Source of the DNA: a virus | Reading direction: 5' to 3' (one strand) | DNA length: 64,000 bases | UHGV virus genome: UHGV-0098755 | Program-made: the position numbers and the translations under genes | Notes under the pieces: generated by a model | Seen by the model: the letters and a program-made list of their open reading frames with translations, nothing else | Database searches by the model: none | Told to the model about the DNA's origin: nothing | Part shown: positions 353-32,246 of the stretch, one piece after another | How the letters are laid out: every line of letters begins with the position of its first letter | Numbering within the stretch: the stretch's first letter is position 1

Positions 353-3493
<3,141 letters not shown>

Positions 3494-3521: not shown

Positions 3522-5501
3522 ATGACTTTATTATCTCCGGGCATTGAGCTCAAAGAAACTACGGTTCAAAGCACCGTGGTTAATAACTCTACTGGTACAG
3601 CAGCTTTGGCCGGTAAATTCCAGTGGGGTCCTGCTTTTCAGATTAAACAGGTTACAAATGAAGTAGATTTAGTTAATACTTTTGGTCAACCAACCGCTGA
3701 AACTGCTGACTATTTTATGTCTGCGATGAATTTCTTGCAGTACGGAAATGACTTACGAGTAGTTCGTGCTGTTGATAGAGATACCGCTAAAAACTCATCT
3801 CCGATTGCCGGTAATATTGAATACACAATTTCTACCCCAGGTAGTAACTACGCAGTTGGAGATAAAATCACGGTCAAATATGTTTCAGATGCTATTGAAA
3901 CTGAAGGTAAAATTACTGAAGTAGACACAGATGGAAAAATTAAGAAAATTAATATTCCTACTGCAAAAATTATCGCTAAAGCTAAAGAAGTCGGTGAATA
4001 TCCGGAATTAGGTCCTAGCTGGACTGCGGAAATTTCTTCATCTTCCTCTGGTTTAGCTGCAGTAATAACTCTTGGAAAAATTATTACTGATTCTGGTATT
4101 TTATTAGCTGAAATTGAAAATGCTGAAGCTGCTATGACAGAGGTTGACTTTCAAGCAAATCTCGAAAAATATGGAATTCCAGGAGTAGTAGCTCTTTATC
4201 CAGGCGAATTAGGCGATAAAATTGAAGTTGAAATCGTATCTAAAGCTGACTACGCAAAAGGGGCTTCTGCATTACTGCCAATTTATCCAGGCGGTGGTAC
4301 TCGTGCATCTACTGCTAAAGCTGTGTTTGGATATGGACCACAAACTGATTCACAGTACGCTATTATAGTTCGTCGCAATGATGCTATTGTTCAAAGTGTT
4401 GTTCTTTCAACTAAGCGTGGTGAAAAAGATATTTACGATAGTAACATCTATATCGATGACTTTTTCGCAAAAGGTGGTTCAGAATATATTTTTGCAACTG
4501 CACAAAACTGGCCAGAAGGCTTCTCTGGAATTTTAACTCTGTCTGGTGGATTATCATCAAATGCTGAAGTAACAGCAGGAGATTTGATGGAAGCTTGGGA
4601 CTTCTTTGCTGACCGTGAATCCGTTGATGTTCAACTGTTTATTGCGGGTTCTTGTGCCGGTGAATCTTTAGAAACAGCATCTACTGTCCAAAAACACGTC
4701 GTTTCAATTGGGGATGCTCGTCAGGATTGCTTAGTATTATGCTCACCACCGCGTGAAACTGTAGTTGGAATTCCTGTAACTCGTGCTGTCGATAACTTAG
4801 TCAATTGGAGAACTGCAACTGGTTCATACACTGATAATAACTTTAATATCAGTTCAACCTATGCAGCAATTGATGGTAACTACAAATATCAGTATGACAA
4901 ATATAATGATGTAAATCGTTGGGTTCCATTAGCAGCTGATATTGCTGGTTTATGCGCAAGAACTGATAACGTTTCTCAGACTTGGATGTCTCCAGCTGGT
5001 TATAATCGTGGCCAGATTCTTAACGTTATTAAACTTGCTATTGAAACTCGTCAGGCTCAGCGCGACCGTTTATACCAAGAAGCTATCAACCCGGTAACCG
5101 GTACAGGTGGTGATGGTTACGTATTGTATGGTGATAAAACAGCTACTTCTGTTCCTTCTCCATTTGATCGTATTAACGTTCGTCGTCTGTTTAATATGTT
5201 GAAAACGAATATCGGACGTAGTTCAAAATATCGTTTGTTCGAATTAAACAACGCGTTTACTCGTTCATCATTCCGCACAGAAACTGCCCAATACTTACAG
5301 GGAATTAAAGCTCTCGGTGGAATTTATGAATATCTTGTAGTTTGCGATACAACAAATAATACTCCATCAGTAATTGATAGAAATGAGTTTGTTGCAACAT
5401 TCTACATCCAACCGGCTCGTAGTATAAATTATATCCAACTTAATTTCGTCGCAACTGCTACTGGTGCAGATTTCGATGAGTTAACTGGTCTTGCAGGTTA
5501 A
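3522..5501 (+). CDS. 18: tail sheath protein gp18 (659 aa)
   Basis: 659 aa as in T4 gp18; late promoter TATAAATA 3486-3493 and GAGG RBS upstream. Confidence 0.9.
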   Translation: MTLLSPGIELKETTVQSTVVNNSTGTAALAGKFQWGPAFQIKQVTNEVDLVNTFGQPTAETADYFMSAMNFLQYGNDLRVVRAVDRDTAKNSSPIAGNIEYTISTPGSNYAVGDKITVKYVSDAIETEGKITEVDTDGKIKKINIPTAKIIAKAKEVGEYPELGPSWTAEISSSSSGLAAVITLGKIITDSGILLAEIENAEAAMTEVDFQANLEKYGIPGVVALYPGELGDKIEVEIVSKADYAKGASALLPIYPGGGTRASTAKAVFGYGPQTDSQYAIIVRRNDAIVQSVVLSTKRGEKDIYDSNIYIDDFFAKGGSEYIFATAQNWPEGFSGILTLSGGLSSNAEVTAGDLMEAWDFFADRESVDVQLFIAGSCAGESLETASTVQKHVVSIGDARQDCLVLCSPPRETVVGIPVTRAVDNLVNWRTATGSYTDNNFNISSTYAAIDGNYKYQYDKYNDVNRWVPLAADIAGLCARTDNVSQTWMSPAGYNRGQILNVIKLAIETRQAQRDRLYQEAINPVTGTGGDGYVLYGDKTATSVPSPFDRINVRRLFNMLKTNIGRSSKYRLFELNNAFTRSSFRTETAQYLQGIKALGGIYEYLVVCDTTNNTPSVIDRNEFVATFYIQPARSINYIQLNFVATATGADFDELTGLAG

Positions 5502-5507
5502 TTGATA

Positions 5508-5523
5508 AGGGGCTTCGGCCCCT
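5508..5523 (+). terminator. GC-rich hairpin with UUCG tetraloop after gene 18
   Basis: AGGGGC-TTCG-GCCCCT, 7 nt after the gene 18 stop. Confidence 0.5.
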
Positions 5524-5539
5524 ATTCTCGAGGAATCAA

Positions 5540-6157
5540 GTGATTATTTCTAAATTCATTAAAGTAAAAATTGTACCATCAAATTTTAAACACTATCAAT
5601 CAAAGGGATATAAATTAGCACCTCTTGGGGCAGTTAAACACGGTTTTAAGTATTATGAAATTGATGTTAAAGTTGAAGACATTAAAGGTAGTACCGCGTA
5701 TGTAAAATGTCGTTGCGATAAATGTGGAATTGAATATAACCAACGCATTGGAAGAAACACTGATATTTGTTGTGATTGTCGCCATAAAGATAAAATGCAT
5801 AATAATTCATATGGTTCCGCGAATAAAGGAAAAACAGTAGAATGTATGCATGGCGTAAATCATCCAAGATGGAACCCAAATAAATCTGAAATGCGTGAAT
5901 ATATTTCATCGGTATATAGAGAAACTCGTAAGCATAGGAAAATTTGGTCAAAATGGCCGAATGCTGATAAGATAGGGGTGTGTGGTACAGAAGGTGCTTA
6001 TCAACTCGATCATAAAGTATCTATCAAATATGGATTTGATAATTTAATTCCGCCGGAAATTATAGCAAGCATAAAAAATTTAGAAATAATCACTTGGGAA
6101 TCTAACCGAGAAAAGTCAAAAAGAAATAGCGTAGATCTTTGGGATTTACTAGAATGA
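5540..6157 (+). CDS. free-standing HNH-type endonuclease with N-terminal Cys cluster (205 aa, GTG start)
   Basis: C-terminal HNH-like motif (YQLDHKVSIKYG...NLEIITWESNREKSKRN), N-terminal CRCDKCG...CCDCRH; GTG at 5540 with GAGG 7 nt upstream; inserted between genes 18 and 19. Confidence 0.6.
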   Translation: MIISKFIKVKIVPSNFKHYQSKGYKLAPLGAVKHGFKYYEIDVKVEDIKGSTAYVKCRCDKCGIEYNQRIGRNTDICCDCRHKDKMHNNSYGSANKGKTVECMHGVNHPRWNPNKSEMREYISSVYRETRKHRKIWSKWPNADKIGVCGTEGAYQLDHKVSIKYGFDNLIPPEIIASIKNLEIITWESNREKSKRNSVDLWDLLE

Positions 6158-6164
6158 TTCTAAA

Positions 6165-6182
6165 GGCCTGTTTCGGCAGGCC
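6165..6182 (+). terminator. hairpin after the HNH gene (GGCCTG ... CAGGCC)
   Basis: 6-bp GC-rich stem, UUCG-type loop, 8 nt after the stop. Confidence 0.45.
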
Positions 6183-6183
6183 A

Positions 6184-6191
6184 TATAAATA
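6184..6191 (+). promoter_or_regulatory. late promoter box TATAAATA (distal) upstream of gene 19
   Basis: Exact TATAAATA just after the hairpin that follows the HNH gene. Confidence 0.5.
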
Positions 6192-6242
6192 CACTATATC
6201 CTTAATTCTTTAATTCTATATGCCCTAGGTTAAACATAGGGA

Positions 6243-6250
6243 TATAAATA
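6243..6250 (+). promoter_or_regulatory. late promoter box TATAAATA (proximal) upstream of gene 19
   Basis: Exact TATAAATA 15 nt before the gene 19 ATG. Confidence 0.55.
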
Positions 6251-6264
6251 CTACAGAGGCTAAT

Positions 6265-6756
6265 ATGTTTGTAGATGATGTAACACGAGCGTTTGAATCT
6301 GGTGATTTTGCTCGACCTAACTTATTCCAAGTAGAAATTTCTTATCTTGGACAAAATTTTACGTTTCAATGTAAAGCCACTGCTTTACCAGCTGGTATTG
6401 TAGAAAAAATTCCAGTCGGATTTATGAACCGTAAAATTAACGTAGCAGGCGATCGTACATTCGATGACTGGACTGTTACAGTAATGAACGATGAGGCACA
6501 TGATGCTCGCCAGAAGTTCGTTGATTGGCAAAGCATTGCTGCGGGACAAGGAAACGAAATTACTGGTGGAAAACCTGCAGAGTATAAAAAGAGCGCTATC
6601 GTTCGTCAATATGCTCGTGACGCTAAAACAGTAACAAAAGAAATTGAAATTAAAGGTCTGTGGCCTACTAACGTGGGTGAACTTCAATTAGATTGGGATT
6701 CAAACAATGAAATCCAAACCTTTGAAGTAACTCTCGCTCTCGATTATTGGGAATAA
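6265..6756 (+). CDS. 19: tail tube protein gp19 (163 aa)
   Basis: 163 aa as in T4 gp19; two TATAAATA late promoters upstream. Confidence 0.9.
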   Translation: MFVDDVTRAFESGDFARPNLFQVEISYLGQNFTFQCKATALPAGIVEKIPVGFMNRKINVAGDRTFDDWTVTVMNDEAHDARQKFVDWQSIAAGQGNEITGGKPAEYKKSAIVRQYARDAKTVTKEIEIKGLWPTNVGELQLDWDSNNEIQTFEVTLALDYWE

Positions 6757-12143: not shown

Positions 12144-12157
12144 TCTTTGACGATTTA

Positions 12158-12177
12158 AGGGACCTTCGGGTCCCTTT
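12158..12177 (+). terminator. intrinsic-terminator-like hairpin (UUCG loop, T-run) after gene 23
   Basis: AAGGGACC-TTCG-GGTCCCTT followed by T-rich sequence. Confidence 0.65.
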
Positions 12178-12191
12178 AGTTGTTTTTATGG

Positions 12192-12199
12192 TATAAATA
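12192..12199 (+). promoter_or_regulatory. late promoter box TATAAATA upstream of gene 24
   Basis: Exact TATAAATA between the gene 23 terminator hairpin and the gene 24 ATG. Confidence 0.6.
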
Positions 12200-12226
12200 A
12201 ATCATATAAACCAAAAGGAAAGCGCA

Positions 12227-16959: not shown

Positions 16960-16988
16960 TAGATATATTTATTACATGGTATTTAGAC

Positions 16989-18500
16989 ATGACTGACATT
17001 AAAGTACATTTTTATGATTTTAGTCACGTGAGAATTGATTGTGAAGAAAGTACATTTCATGAACTCCGTGATTTCTTTAGCTTTGAAGCTGATGGGTATC
17101 GTTTTAATCCGAAATACAAATATGGCCACTGGGATGGACGAATTCGTCTTTTAGATTATAATCGTCTTCTTCCATTCGGATTAGTCGGGCAAATTAAAAA
17201 GTTCTGTGATAACTTTGGCTATAAAGCCTGGATTGACCCACAAATTAACGAAAAAGAAGAATTATCAAGAAAAGATTTTGATGAATGGCTTTCTAAATTA
17301 GAAATCTATTCAGGAAATAAAAGAATTGAACCACACTGGTATCAAAAAGATGCAGTGTTCGAAGGATTAGTTAATCGTCGTAGAATTCTTAATCTTCCAA
17401 CATCCGCTGGTAAATCGTTAATTCAAGCTTTGCTTGCGCGATATTATTTGGAAAATTATGAAGGTAAAATTCTTATCATTGTTCCAACAACGGCTCTGAC
17501 AACTCAGATGGCTGATGACTTCGTTGACTATCGTTTATTCAGTCATGCAATGATAAAGAAAATTGGTGGCGGAGCATCAAAAGATGATAAATATAAAAAT
17601 GATGCACCAGTCGTTGTTGGTACATGGCAAACTGTAGTTAAACAACCGAAAGAATGGTTCTCACAGTTTGGAATGATGATGAATGATGAATGCCATCTTG
17701 CTACAGGAAAAAGTATTTCATCTATCATATCAGGATTAAATAACTGTATGTTTAAATTTGGTCTATCAGGTTCATTACGTGATGGCAAAGCCAATATCAT
17801 GCAGTATGTTGGAATGTTTGGTGAAATATTTAAGCCAGTAACGACTTCTAAATTAATGGAAGATGGACAAGTAACTGAGTTAAAAATTAATAGTATTTTT
17901 CTTCGTTATCCCGATGAGTTCACCACTAAATTAAAGGGAAAAACTTACCAAGAAGAAATAAAAATTATTACTGGGCTCAGTAAAAGAAATAAATGGATCG
18001 CTAAATTAGCTATTAAGCTTGCGCAAAAAGATGAAAACGCTTTTGTCATGTTTAAACATGTATCGCATGGTAAAGCTATTTTCGATTTAATTAAAAATGA
18101 ATACGATAAAGTTTATTACGTATCAGGGGAAGTTGATACCGAAACACGCAACGTAATGAAAACCTTAGCTGAAAACGGTAAAGGAATAATTATAGTAGCT
18201 AGTTATGGTGTATTTTCTACTGGTATTTCAGTTAAAAATCTGCATCATGTTGTTTTAGCGCACGGCGTTAAATCAAAAATCATTGTATTACAAACAATCG
18301 GTCGTGTATTACGTAAGCATGGTTCTAAGACAATAGCAACCGTCTGGGACCTCATAGATGACGCGGGCGTAGTTTCTAAATCAAAAACATCTTCTAAAAA
18401 ATACTCGCATTTAAACTATCTTTTAAAACATGGACTTGATCGTATTCAGCGTTATGCTGATGAGAAGTTTAATTATGTGATGAAAGAGGTTAAACTTTGA
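16989..18500 (+). CDS. uvsW: UvsW SF2 DNA helicase (503 aa)
   Basis: Walker A LPTSAGKS and DECH box; N-terminus matches remembered T4 UvsW; late promoter 16952-16959. Confidence 0.9.
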   Translation: MTDIKVHFYDFSHVRIDCEESTFHELRDFFSFEADGYRFNPKYKYGHWDGRIRLLDYNRLLPFGLVGQIKKFCDNFGYKAWIDPQINEKEELSRKDFDEWLSKLEIYSGNKRIEPHWYQKDAVFEGLVNRRRILNLPTSAGKSLIQALLARYYLENYEGKILIIVPTTALTTQMADDFVDYRLFSHAMIKKIGGGASKDDKYKNDAPVVVGTWQTVVKQPKEWFSQFGMMMNDECHLATGKSISSIISGLNNCMFKFGLSGSLRDGKANIMQYVGMFGEIFKPVTTSKLMEDGQVTELKINSIFLRYPDEFTTKLKGKTYQEEIKIITGLSKRNKWIAKLAIKLAQKDENAFVMFKHVSHGKAIFDLIKNEYDKVYYVSGEVDTETRNVMKTLAENGKGIIIVASYGVFSTGISVKNLHHVVLAHGVKSKIIVLQTIGRVLRKHGSKTIATVWDLIDDAGVVSKSKTSSKKYSHLNYLLKHGLDRIQRYADEKFNYVMKEVKL

Positions 18501-19189
18501 ATTATAAATTAATATACGATAATTTAATTAATAGAGCCCAGAATCGGGCTCGCCTTAATGGATACACTGAAACTCATCATATAATTCCTAGATGTATGGG
18601 CGGTACAGATGATAAGTGTAATTTGGTAGAACTAACAGCTGAAGAGCATTTTATAGCTCATAAACTTTTAGCTAAAATTCATCCAAACCATTACGGTATA
18701 ATTAAAGCCGTTATATGTATGGGGATGAATTCAAAGACTCATGAAAGACACGTTAATAAATCTTACGCCTGGGAACGTCGTAAAATGGCAGAACTTCAAT
18801 CAGGTGAAGGTAATCCATTTTACGGAAAACACCATACGGAAGAACATAAACAATATATGTCAAAACTCATGAAAAATCGTCCAATTACGTGGGGAAGTAA
18901 AATTAGTAAAACTAAAAGAATGAACCCAACAAAATGGACTGAAGAAGCTAAAAGATTGCATTCTATCAATCAATCAGGTAAAAATAATGGCATGTATGGA
19001 AGGAAACATTCCGCTAAATCTATTCAGAAAATTAAAGATAACATGCCAGATAATTCAGGAGCTAATAATCCAGCTGCTAAACCTATAGAAGTAAATGGTG
19101 TTAAGTATAAATGCATGAAAGATGCTTCTAAAGCTACTGGATTATCAATGTACAAACTAAGAATACTTAGAAAAACAGTTAATTTATAA
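18497..19189 (+). CDS. HNH homing-type endonuclease with NUMOD3-like repeats and C-terminal HTH (230 aa, TTG start)
   Basis: HNH motif ETHHIIPRCMGG...NLVELTAEEHFIAHK; repeated GxxNPFYGKHHTEEHK / GKNNGMYGRKHSAKS modules; TTG at 18497 overlaps uvsW TGA (TTGA) with AGAGG upstream; first in-frame ATG would remove the HNH motif. Confidence 0.6.
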   Translation: MNYKLIYDNLINRAQNRARLNGYTETHHIIPRCMGGTDDKCNLVELTAEEHFIAHKLLAKIHPNHYGIIKAVICMGMNSKTHERHVNKSYAWERRKMAELQSGEGNPFYGKHHTEEHKQYMSKLMKNRPITWGSKISKTKRMNPTKWTEEAKRLHSINQSGKNNGMYGRKHSAKSIQKIKDNMPDNSGANNPAAKPIEVNGVKYKCMKDASKATGLSMYKLRILRKTVNL

Positions 19190-19203
19190 GGGCTTCGGCC
19201 CTT
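19188..19203 (+). terminator. hairpin with UUCG loop immediately after the HNH-NUMOD gene
   Basis: AAGGGC-TTCG-GCCCTT overlapping the stop codon. Confidence 0.45.
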
Positions 19204-19214
19204 TGGAGAAAAAG

Positions 19215-19445
19215 ATGTTACTAAAATTTAAACAATTTCTTTATGAAGCTTCTATTGATGAATTTATGGGTAAAATTGCCTCTTGTCAAACATTAGAAGG
19301 TTTAGAAGAACTTGAAGCTTATTATAAGAAAAGAGTTAAAGAAACTGAATTAAAAGATACTGATGACATCTCAGTCAGAGATGCTTTGGCAGGAAAAAGA
19401 GCTGAATTAGAAGATTCAGACGATGAAGTAGAAGAAAGCTTTTAA
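19215..19445 (+). CDS. uvsW.1: UvsW.1-like small helical protein (76 aa)
   Basis: ORF-track start 19203 is TTG; ATG at 19215 with GGAG 6 nt upstream gives 76 aa, the size of T4 UvsW.1. Confidence 0.65.
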   Translation: MLLKFKQFLYEASIDEFMGKIASCQTLEGLEELEAYYKKRVKETELKDTDDISVRDALAGKRAELEDSDDEVEESF

Positions 19446-28095: not shown

Positions 28096-30152
28096 TACAT
28101 TTTGAACTTTTTAGACATTCCGTTAATGTTAACCAAAGAAGCTAAGATTTGAGAAACTTCGTTTTCCTCTTCTTTTGATTCTTCTACAAGGAATTGATTA
28201 AATCCAGCCATTGGACGAACTTCACCAGTTTCCATTAAATGGTCTCCATCATATACTGATTCTTCTAATTGTTCAGAAGGAGGAACGATTGTACCTTCGA
28301 TTAGATACTTGTTATAAGCAGTTTCTTTCATAAAGTACGTACTTACTTTATTAATCTTCAGTAAAATTCCACGCGGTAAAATAACTTCAGCTTCTGATGG
28401 AAATCCTGTTAAATGACCTGGAACGATAACTTTGATTCGCTCAGCTCCTTTAATTACCATACCCACGCTAGTTTCAGCATTTTCATTAGCGTATGTAGAA
28501 TGACTACCCATATGCATCAAATCTTCTGCATCAACAGAACCTTCTCCTTCACCAGAAAATACTGCGCCGGAATCATCTAGAGCCATATAGTTTTTACCAT
28601 GCTCGCCGAAGATATTTGGTTTAAGCGATGTAGATACGAAGTTCTTGAAATAGAACATTTTGTTTTCAATGTTATGACGCAAAGTTTTAAAGGTAACTTC
28701 TTGTCCACGGTAAAGTGTAGTTCCTGGAGGAAGAACTGAACCTTTAGCGAATGCAGAATCCAACGTCTCGATGTGCTTAATAGCTCGTTCCATATATTCT
28801 TCACGGGTAGAATCAGGTTTACCCAAAAGGAATGAGTTCATTTCAACATATGAATCTGCACAATAATCTTCAATTACATCAGATTCAGCTTGAGTTAATC
28901 CTTTTGGAGTTACTTCAATACTTGCATATTCATATGCCTGGGTAGCAGATTCATTAATCAATTTATAAATGCCATTCATTACAAATTGAATAATAGCTGT
29001 CTTTTCATCTGGCGTAGCTTTAGAACCTTTAACCAAATCATTGATAATTTTCTTAATAACATCAAAGCTGTTAGAAATATTAATATCAGCAAGATCGCTT
29101 AAAATTTTATCAGTTTTATAATCAAAGAATTCTTTATTCTTTAAATATTCTTGAGAACCTTGATATGTTATATCGTTCTGCAACTTGATGGATGGATCAC
29201 GTAAACGTGCATGGGCTAATGCAATATGATTTCGGAAACTTTCTAGTTCATAATCGTTAGATTTAAAACGAGAAGCACTCCTCATACCACCGATAGCTCC
29301 TTTGCTGAAGTTTGAACCAATCTGAATAACGCCAGAGTTCATTGGTCCTTCTGCTTTATATACCGGAACTTTAGATTCAAACTCTTGATATTTCTTAGCA
29401 GCGAAGCTATCACCCTGAAGTGAAGCATCAACAGTAGAATATTGAGCTTGTGCTGCTAATCGACGACTAATTTTAGTTTTCTGAATAACAGCTTGGTCCG
29501 TGCGCTTATCATTTTCTAAAGCAATAGAAGCAGCAACAGCGACAGCTTTAGGAACAGCATTACCTGTTTTAACGTCTACATAAACATCACCAACCTTTGA
29601 TTCAACTTTTGTGAATAACTCAGTTGAAATAGGAGGTACACCTGGAATGTCTTCTAAATTGGCATTTTTACGGTAAACCATAATATATGCATACTTTTTA
29701 TCATAGTCCCAGATTTCCTTTAAAAGAACATATCGACCTGCTCCTTTAGTACGTACTAAACGGTCAGCAATAACTTGCATTTGACGAGCAGCGCCATTTG
29801 TTTTACTCTTTAGTACACGGAATAAGCACGCGTCAATTTTATACTGTTTCATTGTTTGAAGAGCAGTATCAAAAACAGCATTAATGACGCCAATTGGATT
29901 TCCACCCAAGTTTCTAAGCTTAACCAGTGATAATTTCTCATTAACACCTATCATTACGATATGCATCATTTTATCGCCCGGCTTAACGTTTTTATTCGTA
30001 TCACCGCCAGAGGTGTATGTACAAAATCTAAATCCAGGAAGCACGCTTTCTTCGCCGGCTTGAATAGCAAAAATTTGTGGTATTTTATGCTTAGGATTTA
30101 AGTTAACAACCGGCGCCGAAGCGCCGTCAAATAATTCTGTAATAAGTTCCAT
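28095..30152 (-). CDS. alt: Alt-type mono-ADP-ribosyltransferase (685 aa), downstream copy
   Basis: N-terminal MELITELFD... packaging/cleavage-type signal; C-terminal R-S-E ART motifs (LYRGQ, FVSTSL, EAEVILPRG). Confidence 0.75.
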   Translation of the reverse strand: MELITELFDGASAPVVNLNPKHKIPQIFAIQAGEESVLPGFRFCTYTSGGDTNKNVKPGDKMMHIVMIGVNEKLSLVKLRNLGGNPIGVINAVFDTALQTMKQYKIDACLFRVLKSKTNGAARQMQVIADRLVRTKGAGRYVLLKEIWDYDKKYAYIMVYRKNANLEDIPGVPPISTELFTKVESKVGDVYVDVKTGNAVPKAVAVAASIALENDKRTDQAVIQKTKISRRLAAQAQYSTVDASLQGDSFAAKKYQEFESKVPVYKAEGPMNSGVIQIGSNFSKGAIGGMRSASRFKSNDYELESFRNHIALAHARLRDPSIKLQNDITYQGSQEYLKNKEFFDYKTDKILSDLADINISNSFDVIKKIINDLVKGSKATPDEKTAIIQFVMNGIYKLINESATQAYEYASIEVTPKGLTQAESDVIEDYCADSYVEMNSFLLGKPDSTREEYMERAIKHIETLDSAFAKGSVLPPGTTLYRGQEVTFKTLRHNIENKMFYFKNFVSTSLKPNIFGEHGKNYMALDDSGAVFSGEGEGSVDAEDLMHMGSHSTYANENAETSVGMVIKGAERIKVIVPGHLTGFPSEAEVILPRGILLKINKVSTYFMKETAYNKYLIEGTIVPPSEQLEESVYDGDHLMETGEVRPMAGFNQFLVEESKEEENEVSQILASLVNINGMSKKFKM

Positions 30153-30155
30153 GAT

Positions 30156-32246
30156 TTATCCTTGAACGAACTTGTAAGGCATGTTTGCAATATCTATGCA
30201 AGACGCAATAATTCCAAGAGATGATTCTACTTTCTGTTTAACATTTGATGAAACAAATGATGCAAAGTCAACTCTATCTTCTATATCACCTGTCATTGTA
30301 ACCAATTCACCAGTTTCCATCAGATGGTCACCGTCATAAATTACCGATTCGGTGAGTTCTTCCGTAGTCATAACTTCAGCTTGAATGAGTTTTGTATTAT
30401 TAGATGTTGTTCCGTCATTATTAGAAGCATCAGTTATTTTATTAACTTTGACCATCAATCCGCGTGGTAGAATTACTTCAGCTTCTGTTGCTATTCCAAG
30501 ACTTCCTGGATATACAACATTAACTTTATGAGCTCCATCAATTGCCCATCCTATTTGAACTTTAACGTATTCAGGATTTTCTTTATACGCTCTTATTTCG
30601 TTTGGATTAATAGTTATTCCTTCTTCATTTTTATCAACTGTTAATTCATTACGAGCTTCTGGTTCTAAAAGACCGATACCAGCATGTGTAATTCCAAAAC
30701 GTCCAAAAATGATAGGAGTTAAAGAAGTAGATACAAAATTTCTGAAATAGAACACTTTATTTTTAACTAGTGCTTCGTATATAGGAGCAGTCATGCTTTG
30801 AGCACGATAAACTGTAATGCCTTCTGGTATACGGTCACCATTTTCAAAAGCTGAATCTAAATTATTTATAGCAGATTCAATTTCTTTTTCACTCATTACA
30901 TCATATCGTTCTGGATTGTAGCGGCCTAAAAGAAGATTATTGATGTCAGTATATCCTGATCCACAATACTCTCTAATGCCACGCTTTTGTGATGGAGTAT
31001 ATTTAGAACCATCACGGGCAATAGTAATATCAATCATTGGACCTGCACCAATTCCAGAAAAACTATAAATCATTCGTTTGAGGAATTTAGTTTTTGCTGC
31101 GTTCCAGGAATTTTTAGTTATTTCTTCCCAGACTTCATCTGGCTGCCCTTTACGAGTTTTATTATGTTTATCAAGCCAATTATCTTTATATTCTTCAAAG
31201 AATTTATTAACAGCTGCTGCGTATTTCTCTAAACATTTTATTGAAGTAGTTGGTTCATTTTTAATCGCATTAAGAATTACATCTTTAATTTTTTCAGAAA
31301 CTTCATTAACCTCACTTTTTGAAAAGAATTTATAATCATAGTGAAGTTCATCTGCAGTTCCTTCGGCAATGATTTTTGCTGCCTTAGTTTTAGAAGCTAT
31401 TGAATTAATTCCAAGTTTCATTTCTTCCGCTTCGGGAATTAAAGGAGCGGTAGCAGGTTTATTGAAATTAGCTGCGGTAGATTCATACTTCTGGAATAAT
31501 TCACTTTCAAATCTAGAAGATTCTAATGATTGACTTTGTGCAATTGCTCTACGGGAAATTTTAACTTTAACGATTACAGCTTGGTCAGAACGTTTATCAT
31601 TTTCTTGCGCAATAGATGCAGCAATTGCCTCATTTTTAGTTACTTGAGCTCCAGTATCTTTATTGATATAAACATCACCAACCTTCGATTCAACTTTAGT
31701 AAAGAGCTCGGTACTAATTTCCGGAACTCCTGGAATGTCTTCTAGTGATACGTTTTTGCGATGTATAAGAATATATGCATACTTTTTATCATAATCCCAG
31801 AGTTCCTTAAGAAGGACGTATCTGCCGCCTGAACGACTACGGATAAGTCTATCAGCAATAACTTGAATTTGTCGAGCTTGACCAGCAGTTTTAGACTTAA
31901 GAATACGAAGCATGCAGGCATCAATTTTATACTGACGCATTGTTTGCATTGCAACAGTAAAAACTGAATTGATGTAATTAATTGGGCTTGGACCGAGACC
32001 TTTTAATTTAGCAATTGAACCTTTAGCAGTTAATGTAAAAGGAACAATATGCATCATTTTATCGCCCATCTTTAAATCACGGTTAGTATCACCTCCAGAT
32101 GTATAGGTACATAAACGAAAACCTGGTTGTTCAATTGCGTCATCAACATGAACTGAAAAAATTTGCGGTATTTTCTTCTTTGGATTTAAGTTTGTAATCG
32201 GAAGAGTAGTATCTTCGTCAAATAATTCTGTAATAAGTTCCATCAT
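30156..32246 (-). CDS. Alt-type mono-ADP-ribosyltransferase paralog (696 aa from first ATG, 695 from second), upstream copy
   Basis: Similar first ~230 aa to the 685-aa copy, divergent middle, conserved R-S-E motifs (VYRAQ, FVSTSL, EAEVILPRG); late promoter on - strand at 32267-32274. Confidence 0.75.
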   Translation of the reverse strand: MMELITELFDEDTTLPITNLNPKKKIPQIFSVHVDDAIEQPGFRLCTYTSGGDTNRDLKMGDKMMHIVPFTLTAKGSIAKLKGLGPSPINYINSVFTVAMQTMRQYKIDACMLRILKSKTAGQARQIQVIADRLIRSRSGGRYVLLKELWDYDKKYAYILIHRKNVSLEDIPGVPEISTELFTKVESKVGDVYINKDTGAQVTKNEAIAASIAQENDKRSDQAVIVKVKISRRAIAQSQSLESSRFESELFQKYESTAANFNKPATAPLIPEAEEMKLGINSIASKTKAAKIIAEGTADELHYDYKFFSKSEVNEVSEKIKDVILNAIKNEPTTSIKCLEKYAAAVNKFFEEYKDNWLDKHNKTRKGQPDEVWEEITKNSWNAAKTKFLKRMIYSFSGIGAGPMIDITIARDGSKYTPSQKRGIREYCGSGYTDINNLLLGRYNPERYDVMSEKEIESAINNLDSAFENGDRIPEGITVYRAQSMTAPIYEALVKNKVFYFRNFVSTSLTPIIFGRFGITHAGIGLLEPEARNELTVDKNEEGITINPNEIRAYKENPEYVKVQIGWAIDGAHKVNVVYPGSLGIATEAEVILPRGLMVKVNKITDASNNDGTTSNNTKLIQAEVMTTEELTESVIYDGDHLMETGELVTMTGDIEDRVDFASFVSSNVKQKVESSLGIIASCIDIANMPYKFVQG

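Follow-up and report, generated by a model that had tools for sequence, protein, structure and literature searches.

What occupies the junction between the tail sheath gene (18) and the tail tube gene (19) in the virus genome UHGV-0098755, and how could it have come to lie there? The stretch of this genome that we analysed (the window, 64,000 nucleotides) is a segment of a Tequatrovirus, that is T4-like, genome, with ∼96-97% identity over 25 kb to phages W143, HY03 and PST. In T4, genes 18 and 19 are separated by a 116-bp spacer without a gene, as the initial annotation of this locus had stated. In the window the junction holds an open reading frame (ORF) on the plus strand (5540..6157) that starts with GTG and encodes 205 amino acids, and the Cys-rich N-terminus and HNH-like C-terminal motif that had been ascribed to it are indeed found. 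The same annotation had proposed a free-standing homing endonuclease at a structural-gene junction. This proposal is supported by comparison, through a precise insertion or deletion, an HNH-like fold, a low ratio of nonsynonymous to synonymous substitution rates (dN/dS), discordant histories of insert and flanks, and fidelity to one site. On this comparative evidence, the insert probably encodes a free-standing homing endonuclease whose family has so far gone uncharacterised.

The edges of the insert were determined by aligning the junctions of 9 filled and 14 empty Tequatrovirus genomes, and by alignment with T4. In all 14 empty genomes the site consists of TAA, TACGGTGCA and TTCTAAAGG, the right flank at full length being TTCTAAAGGCC. 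The filled site consists of TAA, 645-657 bp of insert and the same right flank, with constant edges in 9 of 9 genomes. The insert proper in the window (5502..6157, plus strand) is 656 bp long and stands in place of the 9 bp TACGGTGCA, its edges being TAA/TTGATAAGG on the left and CTAGAATGA/TTCTAAAGG on the right, where the last letters of the insert are the TGA of the ORF itself. A transposon or insertion sequence was considered and rejected, as neither target-site duplications nor terminal repeats are present and 9 bp were replaced with nothing duplicated. The sole strong inverted repeat of the insert is internal and coding.

Directly 3' of the gene 18 stop codon the insert carries a hairpin, A/GGGGC-UUCG-GCCCC/U (5508..5523, plus strand), which occurs in every filled allele and is missing from empty sites. 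It is followed by a Shine-Dalgarno sequence, GAGGAA, read from the sequence at 5530..5535 (plus strand), 4 nt 5' of the GTG start. A second hairpin, GGCCUGU-UUCG-GCAGGCC (6165..6182, plus strand), and the two TATAAATA late-promoter boxes of gene 19 (6184-6191 and 6243-6250, spanning 6184..6250 on the plus strand) lie outside the insert, and because the T4 alignment shows them to be identical there, they are assigned to the ancestral 18-19 spacer. The initial annotation was thus right that both hairpins and both boxes exist, but it had read the first hairpin as a terminator of gene 18, the second as the ORF's own, and the boxes as re-establishing late expression of gene 19. A terminator scan returned 0 sites and a T-run follows neither hairpin, so we dropped the terminator label for both; the second hairpin and the boxes are native T4 sequence and not cassette-borne. 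The cassette contributed only the UUCG hairpin, the GAGGAA Shine-Dalgarno and the ORF.

Occupancy of the junction is sporadic. The cassette is carried by 118 of 499 Tequatrovirus records (∼24%) and by 39 of ∼142 Jiaodavirus records (∼27%). The ORF is missing at the junction in T4, T2, RB27, RB51 and ∼76% of Tequatrovirus records, and is therefore not a universal feature of the T-even references with which the initial annotation had suggested comparing it. Filled and empty states occur together in one species of the International Committee on Taxonomy of Viruses, and near-identical genomes differ by the precise presence or absence of the cassette with constant edges. GenBank lists the protein as hypothetical for nearly every genome, the labels "homing endonuclease" and "type II restriction endonuclease" being used occasionally, and in several records (RB5 and RB10 among them) the ORF is hypothetical or without annotation.

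The position of the ORF is nevertheless kept over great distances. The ORF lies between homologues of the gene 18 and gene 19 products (gp18 and gp19) in all of ∼40 IMG/VR members, some with a gp18 only 35-50% identical to that of T4, and the same position is occupied in ten further metagenomic or genomic contigs and in T4-like phages of Acinetobacter, Aeromonas and Sinorhizobium. Nearly all of the full-length relatives that we examined are encoded directly 3' of gene 18. In phage phiM12 the ORF still follows gene 18, though without an annotated tail tube gene beside it, an indication that the anchor is gene 18. Two members (L017 and L052) carry the ORF inverted relative to genes 18 and 19, an arrangement not readily expected of an accessory gene that is co-transcribed with them. 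We also considered whether, in unrelated phages, the N-terminal module goes together with tail sheath genes; this idea was rejected, the neighbour in Psychrobacillus phage Perkons being a tail endopeptidase and not a sheath gene.

The architecture of the protein was examined by structure modelling and by residue conservation. The AlphaFold2 model has a mean predicted local distance difference test (pLDDT) score of 87.6 and consists of two domains with a lower-confidence linker between them. Residues 1 to ∼100 form a small alpha/beta module with a treble-clef zinc finger and are presumed to bind DNA. The Cys-rich half reads VKCRCDKCG...DICCDCRH, and the predicted zinc finger (CxxC...CxxC, codons C59-C80; 5714..5779, plus strand) is probably part of this DNA-binding module. 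Residues ∼105-205, with the C-terminal motif YQLDH...NLEIITWESNREK, are predicted to form a divergent HNH (His-Me finger) nuclease in which D157, H158, N180 and N189 would be catalytic. A beta-beta-alpha element is modelled at residues 154-192 and contains the predicted beta-beta-alpha-metal core of the HNH/His-Me finger superfamily (codons D157-K192, DH...NL...W..N..K; 6008..6115, plus strand), with a His as general base at the end of strand 1, followed downstream by an Asn and by the Asn that takes the Asn/His position (H-N-N). C59, C62 and C77 are invariant among 42 relatives. Over 142 diverse relatives D157 and H158 are invariant, and C59, C62, C77, N180, L181, N189 and K192 are conserved in at least 90%. 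In a 36-sequence alignment of the C-terminal domain that includes proteins with unrelated N-termini, D157, H158, N180 and N189 are the only invariant residues.

Structural comparison supports the predicted HNH assignment, for which the grounds are fold and motif. Foldseek against viral models matched proteins named "HNH endonuclease" (E = 8e-7) and "homing endonuclease" (E = 2.7e-4), so that matches to the HNH fold, on which the initial annotation had made its proposal depend, do exist; against the PDB it returned nothing at E < 4. The best structural matches of the C-terminal domain are the Geobacter Gme HNH protein 4h9d and the phage GVE2 HNH protein 5h0o, with 69 aligned residues each. In PHROGs only phrog_5104, of unassigned function, was matched. 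Among the 142 relatives, 5 match Pfam HNH_4 or HNH (E 3.5e-4 to 0.003), and NUMOD3 or DUF7487 modules are present in some relatives. In several relatives the CxxC...CxxC finger matches the treble-clef modules of DUF4379 (PF14311; 9 of 28 and 10 of 142 relatives, best E-values 5.6e-4, 7.3e-6 and 5e-6), the window protein itself falling below threshold. A family profile searched against 1.84 billion representatives gave 6948 matches at E <= 0.001 and 1474 at E <= 1e-10.

Some members of the family have unusual forms. The BFVD entry M1HDJ8 of Salmonella phage S16 is a 106-amino-acid protein, 67% identical to part of the query with a target TM-score of 0.91, and looks like a truncated remnant; the related Salmonella phage STP4-a has a full-length copy, so this may be decay in one lineage. 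Four IMG/VR proteins of 540-580 amino acids (L061, L067, L070 and L078) combine the HNH-like domain with a long C-terminal extension and are encoded away from the 18/19 junction. An HHIQG motif is common to the four, and the extension of L070, the one member scanned, gave a weak match to GNAT acetyltransferases (E = 0.015).

Is the gene in use, and has it moved? All nine alleles examined are intact, with dN/dS of 0.08-0.10 (∼0.09) at a synonymous divergence (dS) of 0.30; on this evidence the gene is functional and under purifying selection. The gene and its flanks have had different histories. Four RB3-type alleles have a dS of 0-0.025 in the ORF as against 0.17-0.24 in the adjoining gene 18. 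The ORF tree and the gp18 tree disagree: L007 and L019 have gp18 proteins that are 97% identical and ORFs that are only 39% identical, while L008 and L010 share 54% in the ORF and only 39% in gp18. The Tequatrovirus alleles A (the window, RB3) and B (PST) are 53% identical overall, with a leader and last 72 codons that are nearly the same and N-terminal two thirds that have diverged, and three allelic states (empty, A and B) coexist within single genera. The allele of the window is itself recombinant, its first 399 nt being A-type (18-22 differences) and its last 219 nt B-type (7-10 differences from B alleles versus 23-24 from RB3-type alleles). The evidence from sequence comparison that the gene has been mobile is strong.

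If the gene homes, where would its product cut? A hypervariable island lies in gene 18, in the codons for ARSINYI(T/Q)LNFV (5417..5450, plus strand), 52-85 bp 5' of the insertion point. In Tequatrovirus, the 50-bp bin that contains it (-100..-51) has a nucleotide diversity (pi) of 0.182; all other bins of the last 1.5 kb are at or below 0.085, and those flanking the island bin are at 0.005-0.025. The island exists as four haplotypes with up to 14 mostly synonymous site differences, and ∼65% of empty genomes (249 of 381, counted by identity band) carry the T4-type haplotype, versus ∼1/9 to 2/14 of filled ones. In Jiaodavirus (3 filled and 5 empty genomes) the -100..-51 bin is again the maximum, with a pi of 0.168. 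Within the final 63 nt of gene 18 there are ten synonymous sites that tell the 3 filled genomes apart from the 5 empty ones. Such a pattern is what co-conversion together with selection for cleavage-resistant variants near the insertion point would yield. The island is therefore a candidate recognition, cleavage-resistance or co-conversion patch; that the target itself lies in gene 18 is a tentative hypothesis, which we would sooner doubt than accept.

Within the cassette an RNA feature came to light that had not been expected. A repeat scan detected a 25-nt inverted repeat with arms at 5537-5561 and 6072-6096, in which 23 of 25 positions are Watson-Crick pairs; other 25-mers of the ORF form at most 18 pairs. 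The first arm comprises the end of the leader, the GTG and codons 2-8, and the second the codons of KNLEIITW in the HNH motif. When the 705-nt mRNA is folded, a helix of ∼30 bp (5525-5561 with 6072-6112) appears in both the minimum free energy and the centroid structures. Its 5' arm (5525..5561, plus strand) contains the Shine-Dalgarno, the GUG start and codons 2-8; its 3' arm (6072..6112, plus strand; ∼codons 178-191, KNLEIITWESNRE) lies 510 nt 3' of the 5' arm. Among 16 members of the enterobacterial clade, 14 form the duplex with a free energy of -22 to -39.5 kcal/mol, the best background duplexes reaching -12 to -21. Nearly all of these 14 members start with GTG, and thirteen distant members that start with ATG show no such outlier duplex.

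The pairing is maintained where the sequence changes. The wobble positions of the two arms face each other, and pairs 12-45, 3-54 and 13-44 show compensatory changes. In four sequences a change of codon 3 from ATT to ATC is accompanied by one of E182 from GAA to GAG, with two U-G intermediates and no mismatch at the pair; in POP12 a leader change is matched by a third-position change, and in L128 the substitution S4T goes together with E182V, which brings the helix to 24 of 25 pairs. In-register pairing is found in 83.8% of cells, versus 36-49% when the register is slid. The helix is conserved with compensatory changes, on statistics that are moderate. To pair with the CAC of the Ile-Thr codons, the start would have to be GUG. 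The metagenomic member L133, with an ATG start, lacks the helix between start and NL motif, and its start forms a duplex of -33.4 kcal/mol with a site ∼60 nt further upstream in the ORF, which may be an independent solution to the same regulatory problem.

In the window phage the cassette has no TATAAATA box of its own and the nearest late promoter on its 5' side is that of gene 18 at 3486, so late read-through from this promoter is the likely source of its mRNA. Other lineages are arranged differently. In several other genera (L008, L009, L019 and L020) the homologous ORF has its own TATAAATA box ∼10-60 nt 5' of the start (4001), and in L008 and L009 this box sits within a strong hairpin. The cassettes of Jiaodavirus (L118, 1531-1600; L125) have a different leader, in which a sigma-70-like TTGTAC-N18-TACAAT box is followed by a stem-loop (TTGCACATA...TATGTGCAA) and then the GTG start; this leader of Klebsiella phages resembles the promoter-plus-stem-loop cassettes of T4-type phages. 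Late expression of the family appears to use different routes in different lineages.

With this in mind, one may propose how the gene would work. The ORF would be transcribed late by read-through from the gene 18 promoter, and translation would begin at the GUG, which a good Shine-Dalgarno site precedes. After transcription of ∼570 nt of the ORF, the Shine-Dalgarno, the GUG and the first eight codons could pair with the codons of the HNH motif, and the resulting ∼30-bp helix would close the initiation site and keep the level of the nuclease low. In mixed infections, genomes whose 18/19 junction is empty would be nicked or cut by the enzyme, most likely at the conserved 3' end of gene 18 or at the junction itself, and through recombinational repair from a filled genome the recipient would acquire the cassette along with gene 18 sequence close to it. 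A more ambitious scenario, which we regard as possible though less likely than not, is that this is an ancient homing endonuclease lineage invisible to Pfam, tied throughout the T4 superfamily to the conserved INYI(T/Q)LNF codons near the 3' end of gene 18. It would have persisted by swapping N-terminal DNA-binding modules and left the hotspot in gene 18 behind, and its enterobacterial clade would limit its own translation through the 510-nt helix. Pairing at the start site would in that case explain the use of GUG rather than AUG in the enterobacterial clade.

Several observations weigh against a homing endonuclease, or against particular parts of this model. The profile searches to which the initial annotation had looked for an HNH family did not provide one: the window protein matches no curated model in Pfam (E <= 1), NCBIfam (E <= 10) or PADLOC, and sequence profiles against PDB chains gave no HNH chain, only weak zinc-finger and spurious leucine-rich-repeat matches. 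A literature search returned no biochemical or genetic data on any member of the family. ORF and gp18 identities are correlated (Spearman 0.57), so much of the history is vertical. In the Tequatrovirus flanks, 1.5 kb on each side, no single-nucleotide polymorphism is perfectly linked to the cassette. L111 is a filled genome with the T4-type gene 18 haplotype, by which the target may instead span the insertion point, and some empty genomes carry the haplotype of the window; between them these genomes leave the immunity of filled genomes unexplained unless the target does span that point. The diversity peak could also come from linkage or from unrelated selection, and the sampled genomes are non-independent. 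As for the helix, its covariation score was reached by 4 of 500 shuffles, which is modest, and the number of pairs with a change on both sides was not significant (99 of 500 shuffles); since both arms encode conserved peptides, the pairing is partly a by-product of coding.

Part of this evidence would fit a domesticated or otherwise useful late nuclease, a weapon against co-infecting relatives or a helper in DNA processing, inherited vertically at 18/19 since early T4-like evolution and lost many times. Strong purifying selection, a fixed position across very distant T4-like phages, an own late promoter in some lineages and the correlation with gp18 would all be expected of such a gene. It should not, however, be nearly identical in gene 18 backgrounds ∼0.2 dS apart or very different in phages with 97% identical gp18, nor be inverted in two members, nor fill only ∼24-27% of the genomes of two genera with a clean empty site in the rest. 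We therefore consider vertical inheritance improbable as the main explanation, while noting that it overlaps with homing because homing endonucleases exclude competitors. Less probable again is that the cassette moves by recombination at flanking stem-loops or promoters, with the ORF as a passenger. Mobile regulatory cassettes of this kind are described for T4-type phages (PMC2839356), there are hairpins at both edges of the insert, and the Jiaodavirus leader has its promoter-like box and stem-loop. Yet the two hairpins share no extended similarity, many distant members start 0-30 nt after the gene 18 stop without a hairpin, and the tie of one protein family to one junction in both orientations would be left unexplained.

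The protein could also be a zinc-finger regulator that binds DNA or RNA and whose HNH-like domain is no longer catalytic, as might be suspected from an Asn, not a His, as the last metal ligand, from an HNH core without flanking CxxC pairs and from the failure of any HNH hidden Markov model to match. Against this, no residues in the entire family are better conserved than D157, H158, N180 and N189, as expected of a catalytic site, and H-N-N variants of the motif are active in known enzymes, so that we give this explanation very little credence. A chance ORF or decaying pseudogene, to which the GTG start and the hypothetical or absent annotation in records such as RB5 and RB10 might point, is refuted by the dN/dS of ∼0.09 with all examined alleles intact and by the 6948 cluster representatives that match the family profile, and the confident structure model also speaks against it. 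A free-standing homing endonuclease gene remains the reading that we prefer.

The surroundings of the cassette are those of a T4-like structural module. Gene 17 ends at 3490, and the late promoter of gene 18, TATAAATA, lies at 3486-3493. Gene 18 (3522..5501, plus strand) is the conserved essential gene that the cassette always follows, and gene 19 occupies 6265..6756 on the plus strand. The window contains 19 copies of TATAAATA, versus 8.6 expected by chance; in a promoter scan sigma-70-like sites were no commoner than chance, and an Rfam scan of 5300-6400 gave no credible match.

The window also differs from T4 in other mobile or rearranged elements. A second free-standing HNH homing endonuclease gene (18497-19189, plus strand; 230 amino acids) matches Pfam NUMOD3 with E = 7.7e-14 and HNH weakly. 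It forms a 680-bp insert, not in T4, between uvsW (16989-18500), whose stop its start overlaps, and a short uvsW.1-like ORF (19203-19445). The T4 genes segD and segE are both missing, with short clean junctions at 12154-12215 and 16975-16995, so the set of homing endonuclease genes differs from that of T4 in the same structural region. The alt region (28114-31437) is rearranged or strongly diverged from T4, with 69-80% identity and overlapping partial matches that suggest duplicated alt-like segments.

Free-standing homing endonucleases are well known in T4-like phages, and the basic finding is in this sense unsurprising. What it adds is a family of 6948 cluster representatives that curated domain libraries and the survey of 2010 have missed. 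That census of homing endonuclease genes in T4-like phages listed eight for RB3 and none in the "other HNH" class (PMC2993671), by which the family of this ORF went unrecognised there; a gene between 18 and 19 is likewise not described in the literature that we searched. That the family keeps to one junction in coliphages, in a rhizobiophage and in environmental T4-like phages is informative about the long-term persistence of homing endonucleases. As the insert lies in the structural module of phages used in therapy, it could bias the inheritance of markers in phage cocktails. The system would gain in interest only if experiments upheld both the hotspot in gene 18 and the long-range helix with its effect on translation.

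How does the gene compare with systems already described? Its likeness to small HNH nucleases of the 4h9d and 5h0o type is confined to one domain: these are single-domain proteins, while the ORF here encodes two domains and is dispensable and sporadic, in headful-packaging T4-like phages. HNH proteins of the GVE2 type work with terminase in cos packaging. A role as a terminase-associated packaging factor was considered for the ORF and rejected, as it occurs in only 24-27% of genomes and is separated from gene 17 by gene 18.

The nearest parallel is with the Mob proteins of T4 (MobA-E). Like these, the ORF is a free-standing gene in an intergenic spacer beside a conserved gene, joins an HNH-type nuclease to a separate DNA-binding part and is sporadic among T-even phages, and the marker exclusion and co-conversion expected of MobA-E would likewise be expected of it (PMC2988022). 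The order of domains is reversed, the HNH domain of the Mob proteins being N-terminal and their binding region C-terminal (PMC2988022), while that of the ORF is C-terminal; its motif is H-N-N and lacks the surrounding CxxC pairs. Membership of the Mob family was accordingly rejected, hhalign giving a probability of 0.2% against the mob-like ORF of the window at 18497-19189. Elsewhere, at unrelated loci, the same C-terminal nuclease domain is fused to Zn ribbons, helix-turn-helix domains or DUF7487 repeats, which is the beads-on-a-string modularity typical of phage homing endonucleases (PMC2988022). In its expression the gene would resemble I-TevI, I-TevII, I-TevIII, segB and mobE, in which RNA structure buries the Shine-Dalgarno and start codon and limits translation (PMC2988022). 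There the hairpins are local, and late promoters with their start points within the hairpins give relief; here, the start site has its partner 510 nt downstream, in the gene's own catalytic-motif codons, with no internal late promoter.

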